From the IMG/VR virus record IMGVR_UViG_2030936005_000025, positions 192,001 through 256,000 of that record: DNA of 64,000 nucleotides. One strand, given 5' to 3'. The stretch is from a virus (lineage: Duplodnaviria > Caudoviricetes). Made by a program: the position numbers and the translations under genes. The notes beneath the pieces are model-generated. The model did not search any database. It saw only the letters and a program-made list of their open reading frames with translations, and was not told the origin of the DNA. Positions 6,816 through 12,640 of this stretch are shown here, piece after piece; the first letter of the stretch is position 1; every line of letters starts with the position of its first letter.

Positions 6816-6860
6816 CTTTTCAATCCTAAGGTTAAAAACTAAGTGTGGTTCTTCACTCTA

Positions 6861-6868
6861 ATAATATC
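6861..6868 (-). promoter_or_regulatory. putative phage early promoter (GATATTAT)
   Basis: Recurrent motif, minus-strand context AAATAGATATTATTAGAGTG. Confidence 0.6.
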
Positions 6869-6899
6869 TATTTAATTAATTATGAGAGATCTTTATTTT

Positions 6900-7430
6900 A
6901 TGTAAGAAACGATGTCATTTTATTTTCATTTCGCTATGGGTATTTCTGAATGCCCATAATGAAGTGTGACCGCCATCGTGCTTCTTGGTAGTTTTGCCAT
7001 TCTTTATTGCTATCTACAAAGTGGGGAGGCGGCCTTCCTCCCCCTTTCCTTAAGTACATTTGATTGGGTGTATTTAAGGAAAGCATGGGGGCATGCTTTT
7101 ATTCTGTTGTAAGTCGTGGTTGTTAAAGGACCCAGAGGGTTGGTTTGACTTTTCCTCTTCCCTTTGGGTTCTTTATTTAACATTTCTCTATGTTTGTTTA
7201 TTGAGCTGACATAGAGAAGTGCGCGCCGGTACTTCTTATCCATGTTCTTGCTTCGCCAGATGGTTTGGCAGAGGGGCTTTAGGTAGCCCCTTCTTTCTAT
7301 GTGTATTTACGAGTATACATAGAAAGCGTACCTAGCTGGTATCGCCCATCCCGCTAGTTTTTCTATCGCCTTCTTTTCTAGCCGGGATTACTTAGCCCTG
7401 TGGGGAGATTTTCTACAGGGCGCTTTTCAA
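6900..7430 (+). ncRNA. candidate structured RNA or long structured leader (array of long hairpins)
   Basis: At least eight stems of 7-15 bp, e.g. 7044-7058/7069-7083, 7125-7139/7160-7174, 7293-7305/7314-7326; G-U wobbles favour the + strand. Confidence 0.45.
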
Positions 7431-7440
7431 TGGAGAACCC

Positions 7441-7740
7441 ATGTCACAAGTTGATTTGAACACCCCTGCTTTCGTTAGCTATTCAAAGGCTAACGAGTCT
7501 ATGCTTTCCTCATTGAAAAGCAAGAAATCTGTTAAGTTCGCCCGTAAAGGCTGGAACGGTAAACAACTCCACGTCCAGGTACACGGATCCATTCCAACCA
7601 GTCAGGTTGATTTGGAGAATGGCGAGAACGCCTACATCGAACCTTTCTTTGTTATCGTTAACAAAGCAAACAGCCGCGTGAACATCTGGGTACCATCGGT
7701 CTCAGATCTGCAAGCTGAAGACTGGTACGAAGTTCAGTAA
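7441..7740 (+). CDS. DUF2829-family protein (Tad2-like anti-Thoeris sponge candidate)
   Basis: Signature ARKGWNGK...WVPSVSDLQAEDW. Confidence 0.75.
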   Translation: MSQVDLNTPAFVSYSKANESMLSSLKSKKSVKFARKGWNGKQLHVQVHGSIPTSQVDLENGENAYIEPFFVIVNKANSRVNIWVPSVSDLQAEDWYEVQ

Positions 7741-7978
7741 TTTATTAACGCAGAGTTTATACTCTGTTAAAGAATTCCAGCCGGAGAGTGTAGCACATTA
7801 GCTAAGTGCATCCGGTATCTCTCCCGAGCATACATGTTCCAGTCGGCGGGAAGAGATCCAGAATTGACAGGACCACAATTTGGTTGATCAATCAATAGAT
7901 AAGTTTTATGTCAAGATAAGAACAGTCCTTTCACAGATTCTGAAAGTACACCAACTGTATCTAATCGAGATTAAATAG

Positions 7979-8203
7979 ATGAAACTTTATCTTATTGAGC
8001 GCACAGACAAAGTCTGCATATACGACAATTATTTTGCTACAGTGGTAGCAGCGCCCACAGAGGAAAGGTCACGTGAGTTAGCGTTGGCTTTATTCGCTCG
8101 AGGAGATGACTCGTCTTCGGATGAGTTCCTTGACGTAAGCACGATCGCTATAAACGCCCTTGTCCCTGAGGGTATAATCTTATCGGACTATAATGCCGGA
8201 TAA
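7979..8203 (+). CDS. small phage hypothetical protein
   Basis: 74 aa; MKLYLI...VVAA..EE..R...GIILSDYNAG resembles a widespread small phage protein family. Confidence 0.7.
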   Translation: MKLYLIERTDKVCIYDNYFATVVAAPTEERSRELALALFARGDDSSSDEFLDVSTIAINALVPEGIILSDYNAG

Positions 8204-8211
8204 GAGTAATG

Positions 8212-8337
8212 ACCGCCTGGAATTCCCGGAACCTCAAATTAAATTTGAGATCGAAAGAACATTGACGCTGGTTGCGAGTTGATAACGAAACCAAAGTCAT
8301 GGCTCCGGGAATTACTGATTTAAATATCGAAGGCGGT
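8212..8337 (+). ncRNA. candidate compact structured RNA of unknown class
   Basis: Nested helices ACCGCCT/AGGCGGT (8212-8218/8331-8337) and AATTCCCGGA/TCCGGGAATT (8221-8230/8304-8313) with two inner hairpins; intergenic; strand not certain. Confidence 0.5.
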
Positions 8338-8412
8338 AATATTATTTAGAGTCTATCTTATTTATCTTTTGACTGAACTTTCTCAGTCACTAAAAATATA
8401 AAGGTAAGTAAA

Positions 8413-8901: not shown

Positions 8902-8977
8902 GCTTCCATAGTTCAGTCGGCAGAACGGTCGCCTGTTAAGCGATATGTCGCAGGTTCGAGTCCTGCTGGAAGCGCCA
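8902..8977 (+). tRNA. trnN: tRNA-Asn (GTT)
   Basis: Canonical 76-nt cloverleaf: GCTTCCA/TGGAAGC acceptor, GTTC/GAAC D stem, loop CT-GTT-AA, GCAGG-TTCGAGT-CCTGC T arm, encoded CCA. Confidence 0.97.
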
Positions 8978-10481: not shown

Positions 10482-10619
10482 ATGAAAAAGAAAAAGACTT
10501 CTTTGAAAGAAAAGATCCGTCGCCAGAATCAGAATGCTGAGAAGACCTTATACCTCGATGGCGCTGGTGATACTTTCACGATGACCAAAACCAAAGACGG
10601 CTATAAGTTAAACGTGTAG
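10482..10619 (+). CDS. small basic hypothetical protein (45 aa)
   Basis: MKKKKTSLKEKIRRQNQNAEKTLYLDGAGDTFTMTKTKDGYKLNV; fills the gap before the next gene; absent from the ORF track. Confidence 0.5.
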   Translation: MKKKKTSLKEKIRRQNQNAEKTLYLDGAGDTFTMTKTKDGYKLNV

Positions 10620-10681
10620 GGTAGCAATACCCTACTCCTATATTTCATCTCCAACCACTACTATGACCGAGAGAGAAGAAT

Positions 10682-11290
10682 ATGAAACTTAAGTTGATTA
10701 CTGTTGATAAACGTACCTACGCAATTAAGACTCGATATATCGAGCTGAATAGTGATGCCAGTGTGCATTACCGCTCCCCTATCACTGGAAAATTCCCAAC
10801 AGGGGATGACGATACAATTACTGATGTGCTCAGGTCAGCTCCACCTACTGCCGTTGCTGTTGTGTATTCTTGTAACAGAGAACCAATCTATATTGAAAAG
10901 CATGACGGTGCGTATGTTATCTCTGAAGCTAAGACCATTGAGATTGTCAATCAGCCAGTGGACTTCGATGATGTTGATTTCTGGGTTAACACCAAAGGCG
11001 AGGAAGAGTGGAAAAAGGTTGGACTAGGATATTACATTGAGTATTCTAGAGTACACCTGAATGACAGTTACCAGGTCGCTCAAAAGGATTTCAATTTAAA
11101 TGAAAAAATGCAAGGGATAGTCCACCTGCCAAACGGTCAACTTGGTAAAGCAGTAAGATGGTATCTCAATGGATCGAGGACTTGGCTTAGAGTCACTGAG
11201 GGGATGAGTGAGGATATTCTTTCTAAACTGACCGTGATCACTATCCTTGATGGAAAAAATCCTAATGACCCAGGGTATAAACTTCCATAA
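10682..11290 (+). CDS. hypothetical protein
   Basis: 202 aa; GAGAGAAG RBS. Confidence 0.75.
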   Translation: MKLKLITVDKRTYAIKTRYIELNSDASVHYRSPITGKFPTGDDDTITDVLRSAPPTAVAVVYSCNREPIYIEKHDGAYVISEAKTIEIVNQPVDFDDVDFWVNTKGEEEWKKVGLGYYIEYSRVHLNDSYQVAQKDFNLNEKMQGIVHLPNGQLGKAVRWYLNGSRTWLRVTEGMSEDILSKLTVITILDGKNPNDPGYKLP

Positions 11291-11291
11291 G

Positions 11292-11299
11292 TATATTAT
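11292..11299 (+). promoter_or_regulatory. putative early promoter (TATATTAT) in front of the long non-coding region
   Basis: Same motif and downstream TAA.T context as the minus-strand early promoters; no credible CDS follows for ~900 nt. Confidence 0.55.
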
Positions 11300-12158
11300 G
11301 TAATTCAATCGAGTGTAACTGATCGCTGTTCTGCGGAATAGTATGGTTTCATCACCCCGTTATATTCGACTGTAAGACCCTCGTTATCCAGGTGTGGGTA
11401 CATAACGAGGGCAGTGTCCGGTGGGTTGCACTACCGGACTAAATCCAAGAGTGAACGGCGGCTTAAGCCCGCTACTGTAAGTAGCTCTTGGTTGGGTGAT
11501 ATTATGTACTTTCACTGCATAATGTCCTCTGGCGGTGGTTGGACTTTTGGCGTTCTTCGCCATTGTCTGACAGATCACCGCACCCCTTTGTACCAGTGGC
11601 TGATATCCAAGTAGAGCTTTAATTATACCTGACGGATAGCGCTCACAGTGTTTCAACCATTGGTACATCCTCTTGAGGATCTTGAACGAAAACCGTAGGG
11701 TAACCGCCGAGCACATTGCGTTGCATTCAAGGCGGCTTAAGCAGGGGACTAGGTAGTCTTCCTGGGTGATATCAAGATCCTCAAACCTACTACTCTCCGT
11801 GATATGGAGTAGACACCCCGTGGTGGGGGCATCGTAACCATCTGATGAGTCCGCGATGAGAAATAAAGAGACGAAACGGGTTCTGTCGTTCGGAGACTCC
11901 AACTCCTGACAGATCCGTCATGAATCGCTCTGCCTTAACTGTGAGGAGCAGCCTCAATCTACGATTCTAGAGGAACAGCAGCGTTACTGAAAGATCCACG
12001 GCAAATGGATCGAAGCAGATAACAAACAGTCCGCTCCCTTTGCCAGGGGAGAAGTTGTTAAAACCAAGAGGTGTAGACAGCCTTTAGATCACCGTGGTAG
12101 TAAAATGGGGTTGCTCCCAGAGTAGCTATCAGAAAGTGGTCTTTAGAGTGGCTATACA
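11300..12158 (+). ncRNA. candidate large (~860 nt) structured non-coding RNA
   Basis: No credible CDS; more than 15 helices including long-range ones; promoter upstream; last helix closes just before the A-run and terminator hairpin. Confidence 0.6.
11812..11887 (+). ncRNA. type III hammerhead-ribozyme-like fold with GUG at the cleavage triplet
   Basis: CTGATGA 11842-11848; stem II GTC/GAC; GAAA 11873-11876; stem III CCCGT/ACGGG plus GACA/TGTC; stem I GTGG/CCAT; position 17 is G11822. Confidence 0.5.
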
Positions 12159-12180
12159 AAAAAAAATAACAGATCGAGAT

Positions 12181-12208
12181 CCTCTACTCTCCTAACGGAG
12201 AGTAGAGG
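12181..12208. terminator. perfect 12-bp hairpin at a convergent junction
   Basis: CCTCTACTCTCC-TAAC-GGAGAGTAGAGG, with A-run at 12158-12167. Confidence 0.75.
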
Positions 12209-12214
12209 TAATCT

Positions 12215-12640
12215 TTATGCTGTCAAATAAAGTTCAGCCCAGATTTTAAATAAACGTTTCATGTCATTTGCGATCAATCCTAATGCCCGTGTATTTTTCA
12301 AGTTACCGGCATACAACCAAAGTTCACACTCAGGTTCACCTACGATCACAATGTCATTGAAATACATGACCAGAGATTTGGATGAGGTAGCAATGAGATC
12401 TTTGCGATTAACTGCAAAGCAGAATTCATTGGATTCAAGAATCACATTGTAGAAATAAGTGAACAGAGCTGCATCAAAACTGTCTGGTTCTAATTCATAA
12501 GTCTCAGCTAACTTAATGCTCTCCTCTTCATTAATAGCTAATTTAGTCAGAGAGTCGTTACCGGTGATAGCAGACAGGTTGCGTTTGAAGATGGTTTCCA
12601 TGATAGCTTTCCTTAATAAGTTAAGAACATTATTGTTCAT
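12215..12640 (-). CDS. hypothetical protein (single-gene early cassette)
   Basis: 141 aa; promoter motif at 12650-12657 upstream, hairpin downstream. Confidence 0.7.
   Translation of the reverse strand: MNNNVLNLLRKAIMETIFKRNLSAITGNDSLTKLAINEEESIKLAETYELEPDSFDAALFTYFYNVILESNEFCFAVNRKDLIATSSKSLVMYFNDIVIVGEPECELWLYAGNLKNTRALGLIANDMKRLFKIWAELYLTA

Follow-up and report, generated by a model that had tools for sequence, protein, structure and literature searches.

Stable RNAs other than tRNAs are known products of phage tRNA clusters, as with the species 1 and 2 RNAs of T4 and the small RNAs of T5, which are about 120–140 nt long, co-transcribed, processed and released by host RNases. Much larger are GOLLD and ROOL, ornate RNAs of phages and prophages, and GOLLD env-38 is encoded downstream of tRNA-Met (bioRxiv 10.1101/2024.12.08.627333). 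Also pertinent are those hammerhead ribozymes of bacteria and phages that a pseudoknot stabilises (Perreault et al. 2011, PMC3088659; Rfam clan CL00010); in natural hammerheads pseudoknots between stems I and II are common and needed for fast cleavage. The locus considered here bears comparison with each of these. It lies in a window of 64,000 nucleotides, bases 192001–256000 of the 264,203-bp viral record IMGVR_UViG_2030936005_000025, from a jumbo phage related to OBP and phiKZ, and 11291–12214 on the + strand is a genuine locus of structured non-coding RNA. Very probably it is a protein-free unit in which two tandem structured RNAs, Module A (about 11311–11919) and Module B (11920–12158), are processed by a hammerhead predicted at 11830–11922, the whole ending at a terminator hairpin at 12181–12208.

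Like GOLLD and ROOL, the RNA of the window falls in the range of 600–900 nt, has many helices and conserved junctions, is phage-encoded by tRNA genes, comprises a universally conserved part and a variable part, and has no known protein partner or function. The phage location near tRNA genes that serves as a criterion for GOLLD is found here, and in the related phages Yubaba, Sureiya and N1M2 the RNA directly follows tRNA-Met, the position of GOLLD env-38 being matched in Yubaba and N1M2. The differences are that the RNA includes a predicted self-cleaving ribozyme, with which neither family has been described, that it is two separable RNAs, that it is carried by jumbo phages of Gram-negatives, and that covariance-model similarity is lacking, neither GOLLD (RF01998) nor ROOL (RF03087) giving a match at E ≤ 10 in the window or its relatives. 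No conserved palindromic kissing loop was found by eye. Where the original prediction had proposed a GOLLD/ROOL-like RNA or a new class, the new large RNA class and the GOLLD/ROOL-like setting by tRNA genes stand, and membership of either family does not. The single RNA of ~860 nt that it envisaged gives way to two separable modules joined by a hammerhead, which had been overlooked in a description of one unit without a recognised ribozyme consensus.

That no tmRNA, RNase P or intron is present, as was also claimed, agrees with the lack of a corresponding Rfam match and of an ARAGORN tmRNA call. With Rfam 15 only a tRNA-Asn at 8902 reaches the gathering score in the window, at E ≤ 10 the window adds just noise and a 16-bit hammerhead match, and at both thresholds the relatives give only tRNAs and chance-level matches. 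An RNase P-like reading of AAGACC, AGAGUGAACGG and GUAGAACCCGAAC was rejected, the strands not being complementary, Rfam giving no match and GUAGAACCCGAAC being absent from the window; the P4-like pair of motifs AAGACC and AGAACCCG fared no better, the two not being complementary and AGAACCCG being absent from the window.

With the hammerheads of Perreault et al. the ribozyme shares a complete core, three stems, a 5-bp stem I/II pseudoknot, a phage intergenic setting and a self-cleavage, here predicted, that yields a 2′,3′-cyclic phosphate and a 5′-OH. It differs in linking two large structured RNAs instead of occurring alone or between mRNAs, in the length of stem III (~40 nt) and its conserved YUCCAR loop, in having its pseudoknot strand in the 5′ strand that leads into the open stem I, and in Rfam scores that are below threshold. 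In comparison with the stable RNAs of T4 and T5, the two RNAs are larger, ~600–750 nt and ~250 nt, and at least one junction is predicted to be cut by a ribozyme of their own and not by host RNases. For jumbo phages that are OBP-like or nucleus-forming, no report of a hammerhead or of a large structured RNA was found in the searchable literature.

The locus comprises 924 bases without a credible gene, from the stop of a 202-aa gene (10682–11290, +) to the end of a converging gene (12215–12640, −). There is no conserved ORF in 11291–12214, and its G+C is ~0.49, as against ~0.40 in the flanks. As RNA, the + strand of 11300–12158 folds at −312 kcal/mol, with a z-score of −7.0 against shuffles, whereas its complement reaches only −3.1, and this asymmetry together with invariant G-U pairs fixes the + strand as the RNA strand. 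A 5′ leader (11291–11310) runs from the stop codon of the upstream gene to the first helix. At the other end, the 12-bp terminator hairpin at 12181–12208 (+), with loop UAAC, closes the unit and faces the 3′ end of the minus-strand gene; relatives have, in the alignment, an equivalent terminator, CCCCUAC...GGGGUAGGGGUUU, at the corresponding place. Both the large structured non-coding RNA on the + strand and the terminator at its 3′ end had been anticipated, and both are upheld, the RNA by its conservation, its better folding than shuffles, its covarying helices and its lack of a conserved ORF.

In blastn comparisons the locus appears as patchy islands, of 81–90% identity, in Erwinia phage AH04, Kosakonia phage Kc263, Pantoea phage Survivor and Serratia phages Yubaba and Sureiya. 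The loci of more relatives were fetched with the neighbouring 284-aa virion protein as anchor, and an unannotated gap of 750–1150 nt is at the corresponding place in those five phages and in N1M2, SXP01, OBP and pEt-SU, with tRNA genes and glutaredoxin on its upstream side and the virion gene, thymidylate kinase and terminase on its downstream side. The gap is present in all OBP-like phages of Enterobacterales, Pseudomonas and Shewanella, and known hosts include Pseudomonas fluorescens (for OBP), Serratia (Yubaba), Klebsiella aerogenes (N1M2) and Erwinia billingiae (AH04). With copies added by pattern scans from three IMG/VR contigs and one metagenome contig, the family stands at 13 distinct sequences, from OBP-like jumbo phages and uncultured relatives, with one copy per genome, each of them placed between the tRNA/glutaredoxin cluster and the virion gene; a search of 185,579 prokaryote species genomes gave no copy. 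tRNA genes lie 0–2.4 kb upstream in all annotated relatives. The immediate upstream neighbour varies by phage (the 202-aa gene, tRNA-Met or glutaredoxin), and the RNA stays constant. No deposited genome annotates it.

The hammerhead, of type I topology and with its cut predicted from sequence after C11919 of a GUC triplet, has a catalytic core of CUGAUGA (11842–48), GAAA (11873–76) and GUC (11917–19). Stem I is open (11839–41/11920–22) and stem II closed (11849–51/11870–72), while stem III is a long closed hairpin (11876–79/11915–18, 11882–87/11908–13 and 11892–95/11903–06) with a conserved loop, ACUCCAA; the strand just 5′ of stem I (11830–34) forms the 5-bp pseudoknot with loop II (11854–58). 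All elements by which a hammerhead core is defined are present (C3-U4-G5-A6-N7-G8-A9, G12-A13-A14, A15.1-U16.1 and an NUH triplet), and in every aligned sequence CUGANGA, G10.1-C11.1, GAAA, A15.1-U16.1 and GUC are invariant, N7 alone varying (U, C or A). In the hammerhead alignment, A3, 87.8% of cells are paired, against 74.5% when shuffled and 32–46% with slid partners, and there are double-sided changes in 16/28 pairs (0/500 shuffles). Covariation extends to 4/4 pairs of stem I (CAU/AUG, ACAU/AUGU, CACC/GGUG, CUAU/AUAG and CAG/CUG), to one pair of stem II (C-G to U-A) and, as double-sided changes, to 5/11 and 3/4 pairs of stem III. The pseudoknot is 98.3% paired, with three pairs changed on both sides and such variants as CAUCG/CGAUG, CGUCG/CGACG, UGUCG/CGACA, GUUCG/CGAAC and CCCG/CGGG. 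A covariance model of the ribozyme gives the family 75–105 bits, and ≤40.6 bits to ~55 other metagenome hammerheads.

A type III reading with a GUG cleavage triplet was tried and rejected, its stem I and III partners not being kept in Kc263, Survivor, Yubaba, SXP01, OBP and pEt-SU. For the conserved stem III loop there is no consistently placed complement within the RNA, and Rfam at E ≤ 10 gives no hammerhead match in the Yubaba gap. Hammerhead clusters unrelated to this family were met elsewhere: a G+C-rich viral contig (L015:8865-12209; IMGVR_UViG_3300045136_000538) has four hammerhead-model matches, of 23–30 bits each, in a space of 3.4 kb, and contigs L031 and L040 have two matches each.

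Module A is an ornate RNA of ~610 nt in the window and up to ~750 nt in relatives, with the hammerhead as its 3′ end. All of its features are on the + strand. Its 5′ arm (11311–11367) is a long hairpin (11311–19/11359–67) that contains an inner hairpin (11326–31/11336–41), a pairing verified in the window; the inner hairpin covaries in AH04 in the alignment, while the sequence of the arm is restricted to the window's subclade and per-sequence folds give a different long arm in other phages. The conserved core (11371–11495) opens with the invariant junction UGUAAGACC (11371–79) and continues with helix B (11378–87/11402–11), helix C (11416–24/11431–39), the junction UAAAUCC and helix D (11445–51/11485–91). 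Helix D encloses a conserved asymmetric internal loop, UGAAC (11452–56) and ACUGUAAGUAG (11474–84), which we take to be loop-E/sarcin-ricin-like; also within the core is hairpin D2 (11457–62/11467–73), then UGGUKGG. Helices B and C form in 13/13 sequences, with differing letters, and for this 5′ core 91.5% of cells are paired, versus 78.8% when shuffled, with double-sided changes in 16/25 pairs (0/500 shuffles).

The variable middle that follows (11494–11666) has hairpin E (11494–508/11516–29), a window-specific hairpin (11532–40/11573–81) and a long hairpin G (11590–99/11657–66). In the window and in a close relative, the L006 contig (IMGVR_UViG_3300045943), it stands in place of a conserved domain of ~150 nt, with loop GUAGAACCCGAAC, that is found in most members. 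That domain is almost sequence-invariant across genera (Yubaba, L004:2580-2760; Kc263; Survivor; N1M2; SXP01; pEt-SU; L074); AH04, OBP, L014 and L018 have a diverged version, and the window and L006 have none. In Yubaba and N1M2 its loop and the tip of helix B are complementary over 7–8 bp, a match not kept in others, and a pairing of the loop with the hammerhead's CGGGUUC was rejected for want of covariation and of the loop itself in the window. Further 3′, the ‘H’ domain (11673–11784) has a long closing helix (11673–85/11772–84) and two conserved junction strands, ACGAAA (11686–91) and GAUAU (11768–72), and encloses two or three hairpins, 11704–08/11731–35 among them. The H helix is 92.9% paired versus 71.5% shuffled, with double-sided changes in 9/12 pairs and a covariation score of 0.73 versus 0.30. 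Small hairpins occupy 11789–11829, one subclade-specific (~11790–97/11805–12) and the other, hairpin I (11816–19/11826–29), with a conserved loop containing GGUG; hairpin I is in all members with different stem letters (CCCC/GGGG, CCCU/AGGG, CUCUC/GAGAG, CUACU/AGUAG). In every module compensatory base changes exceed both the shuffled and the slid controls.

Module B (+) is a structured RNA of ~240 nt. It begins with a hairpin (11927–31/11945–49) whose 13-nt loop, GCCUUAACUGUGA, is conserved, and a second hairpin follows (11993–98/12006–11). Next comes a motif, CAAACAGUCCG-[12034–38/12047–51]-GAAGUUGU, with helix 12026–29/12055–58, and then a nested domain (12072–79/12149–56, 12087–93/12135–41, 12098–101/12125–28 and 12106–10/12115–19). 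Pairing amounts to 91.0%, versus 80.9% shuffled, and 15/36 pairs have double-sided changes (0/500 shuffles).

Several of the helices had been proposed at the outset. Helices B and C and the second hairpin of Module B hold in the window with compensatory changes in relatives; so does the nested 3′ domain, with coordinates shifted by 1–3 nt. The pairing 11704–08/11731–35 also holds, one relative having CCACC/GGTGG. The proposal of 11532–40/11573–81 is right for the window, where it pairs, but lies in the stretch that is replaced in relatives, and 11942–46/11952–56 has to be abandoned, clashing as it does with the covarying first hairpin of Module B.

The two halves of the unit have different evolutionary distributions, as Module B can be absent where Module A is kept and is found alone in Aeromonas phages. 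R2, a covariance model of the 3′ part of Module B, scores 75–130 bits in the nine family sequences that carry it. Survivor, pEt-SU, SXP01 and one metagenomic variant have no Module B; all four keep Module A and the hammerhead, and their RNA ends ~10–20 nt past the cut site and is followed by a terminator. Conversely, in six Aeromonas phages, which have neither Module A nor the hammerhead, the best R2 match is at the syntenic spot on the same strand (32.1, 31.9, 26.6, 18.0, 15.3 and 11.6 bits, the best score in a 670-kb control set being 21.6), and these candidates have compensatory changes in the first hairpin. Neither a profile of Module A (nhmmer --max) nor model R1 gives a match in Aeromonas phages. 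A loose scan for the Module B motif in viral and prokaryote collections returned chance matches only, of which R2 confirmed no viral one, the prokaryote matches being unfiltered; the viral matches were then used as a negative control. The modules are shown to be evolutionarily separable, and it is exactly where they meet that the ribozyme lies.

An early promoter of its own had also been ascribed to the RNA. This is unsupported: TATATTAT at 11292–11299 is not a recurrent motif, the motif TATATTAT(G) / GTATATTATG being no more frequent than chance predicts, whether in the window or across all 264 kb of the genome, and one relative's contig begins at ~11259, upstream of it. The unit is probably co-transcribed with the upstream tRNA/glutaredoxin region, which is made more likely than an own promoter by the start of the RNA directly after tRNA-Met in Yubaba and N1M2. 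A terminator-like hairpin at 10616–10635 (+), between the glutaredoxin-side genes and the gene at 10682–11290, is relevant here: were it to terminate efficiently, transcription of the RNA unit would have to begin between 10636 and ~11310.

Among the public runs searched, none on record as RNA contains the stretch; four RNA-like runs (X17, X18, X23 and X24) contain a relative. In one of these, X18, contig depth is 75.9 for Module A and upstream genes, 387 for Module B and 14.7–28.7 for neighbouring structural genes; in another, X23, the values are 48.7, 210 and 10.7–27.1 for Module A, Module B and neighbouring genes, respectively. Module B is accordingly at ~5 times the depth of Module A, which in both X18 and X23 is assembled on one contig with upstream genes. 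No contig in 4/4 runs extends across 11903–11935, which contains the predicted cut site. The pattern is as expected of transcription and cleavage and is hard to explain for DNA, and provides indirect support for transcription, and for a break at the cut site, in that relative.

Several points weigh against an operon of two ribozyme-processed RNAs. Stem II of the hammerhead has only three pairs in the window. The Rfam hammerhead models remain below threshold, the best being Hammerhead_3 with 16.3 bits against a gathering score of 48.5 (E 3.7); the alignment to that model used the wrong, type III, topology, and a stem III of this length and a stem I that is open are at odds with the models. Module A of the window, without the ~150-nt domain, could be a version that is reduced or has partly decayed. 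The pair-count controls favour structures that were themselves drawn from the alignments being scored, and the weaker Aeromonas matches (11.6–18 bits), being below the control maximum, count through synteny only. As to expression, the four runs are small, belong to one study, are guessed to be RNA and inform at the level of contigs only, without strand or exact ends; what they hold is a relative ~90% identical and not the window's phage, and on either side their contigs break off 15–17 nt before the cut site, not exactly at it.

On the favoured interpretation of two processed RNAs, the hammerhead would cut after C11919 to leave Module A with a 2′,3′-cyclic phosphate, and would release Module B, from 11920 to the terminator (~240–290 nt), with a 5′-hydroxyl. 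Both ends would be expected to resist the usual 5′-monophosphate-dependent and 3′-OH-dependent decay, and tailing, from which the cut would most likely serve to provide two separate, long-lived RNAs that act in trans. We infer cleavage in vivo, stabilisation by the chemistry of the ends and action in trans alike. No phage-encoded RtcB was found, and for RNA ligase there is one sub-threshold ligase-domain match only; with no phage RtcB, re-ligation, if any, would fall to the host. The analogy of GOLLD and ROOL and of the stable RNAs from phage tRNA clusters leads us to favour self-assembly, or a role in which a macromolecule of host or phage is bound or sequestered. A more specific version is tentative, having something to commend it though it may well be wrong: Module A might be an RNA machine of a new class, self-assembling or binding tRNAs or a host factor and expressed by OBP-like jumbo phages from their tRNA region, with cleavage obligatory for maturation in a non-coding RNA operon that would give two independent trans-acting RNAs, and with Module B the older component, shared with Aeromonas phages.

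Of the other explanations, the one that survives best, though it is unlikely, is a single giant unit of ~860 nt, GOLLD/ROOL-like, in which the hammerhead is inactive, slow or regulatory and the halves are held by tertiary or long-range contacts. Both halves are indeed within one promoter-to-terminator unit in 9/13 members, GOLLD likewise has a variable half and a conserved half after tRNA-Met, and cleaved ribozyme products can remain associated; however, a single unit sits poorly with the absence of Module B in four variants where Module A and the hammerhead remain, with its occurrence alone in Aeromonas phages, with the ~5-fold difference in depth between the halves and lack of a bridging contig, and with the strong selection on the hammerhead core and pseudoknot. 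The long-range pairs once proposed are of particular relevance. The 9-bp complement of 11485–93 and 12062–70 exists in the window and close relatives, but the pair would take the 3′ strand of covarying helix D and the partner is absent in AH04, Yubaba and others; that of 11325–31 with 11973–79 competes with the inner hairpin of the 5′ arm, which covaries in AH04. Neither pair is conserved, and both compete with covarying local helices.

Somewhat more doubtful still is a cis-acting element for processing or insulation, that is, a structured 3′ UTR or spacer whose hammerhead detaches the upstream early transcripts (tRNAs, glutaredoxin) from the structural genes downstream and makes their ends stable. 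Intergenic hammerheads of phages, and others that lie between the genes of a polycistronic RNA, are known (PMC3088659), in some members the RNA directly follows a tRNA or protein gene, and the shared contig of Module A and upstream genes in X18 and X23 would fit. Yet a spacer has no need of ~600 nt with sequence-invariant junctions and >10 covarying helices, the terminator already parts the unit from downstream genes, and the RNA is constant where the upstream neighbour differs among phages.

Highly improbable is an element acting at the level of DNA, such as a packaging site, a replication origin or a recombination hotspot, with hairpins that form in DNA. The proximity of terminase and virion genes, the closeness to the start of the record in several genomes and the variable gene content around the locus (the 12215–12640 gene in the window, an HNH endonuclease in pAEv1810) are what such an element might show; but on the opposite strand the invariant G-U pairs would become C-A mismatches, the fold z-score is strongly strand-asymmetric, and a complete hammerhead, a covarying pseudoknot and a terminator make sense only as RNA.

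Protein coding, by ORF 11384–11902 (−) or ORF 11414–11614 (+), or a decaying pseudogene, can be virtually dismissed: the window does have an open frame of 172 aa and short CDSs are annotated in the gaps of N1M2 and Kc263, but the frame is broken in AH04, the L006 contig and Yubaba, and the conserved islands match helix junctions, not codons. ORF 11384–11902 is a mechanical one, with a TTG start and antisense to the RNA, and is not a gene; the longest antisense ORFs in relatives are of 50–87 aa. In the close relatives, in all of which it is broken, there are indels of 1 and 2 nt, each of the three frames contains stops, and a third-position bias is lacking (18/17/23, 24/25/35, 27/31/35), and non-coding status survives the test of whether this ORF is translated under purifying selection. 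The annotated CDSs inside the conserved RNA, N1M2_252 (L007:2371-2883, − strand) and Kc263 QYN80068.1 (L002:3013-3204), the latter running across the hammerhead, are most likely annotation artefacts.

Some features of the surroundings may be mentioned. The minus-strand gene at 12215–12640, of 141 aa and converging on the RNA terminator, has no counterpart there in AH04, Yubaba and other relatives; two metagenomic variants run past its site without it (joints 11926→12692 and 11998→12763), and it resembles a recent insertion. Another sign of the locus as an insertion hotspot comes from pAEv1810, in which the Module B homologue and the virion gene are separated by an inserted gene for an HNH endonuclease (L334:1884-2936), encoded on the opposite strand. 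tRNA genes that Rfam detects but that are unannotated in several Aeromonas jumbo-phage records (L011:2748-2830, L337:2041-2122, L012:1096-1169, L334:471-1016) sit in the tRNA/RNA region upstream of the Module B homologue. Within the window, the claim that the locus is the longest non-coding stretch is not strictly true, as 6816–8412 is also devoid of ORFs ≥100 aa; this ~1.6 kb may contain more non-coding RNAs, and in the RNA-like runs a contig covering 7408–7883 is deep (66.7 in X18).

Large folded RNAs without known function, such as GOLLD, ROOL, OLE and raiA, are a clear open problem for which only a handful of classes are known. The locus adds a well-supported new class, in jumbo phages that are cultivable, and its function is directly testable. 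Spurious protein annotations run across the RNA in at least two of the deposited genomes. A pseudoknotted hammerhead, as predicted here, at the junction of two separable RNAs would amount to a ribozyme-processed non-coding RNA operon, an arrangement not described for the known ornate RNAs.

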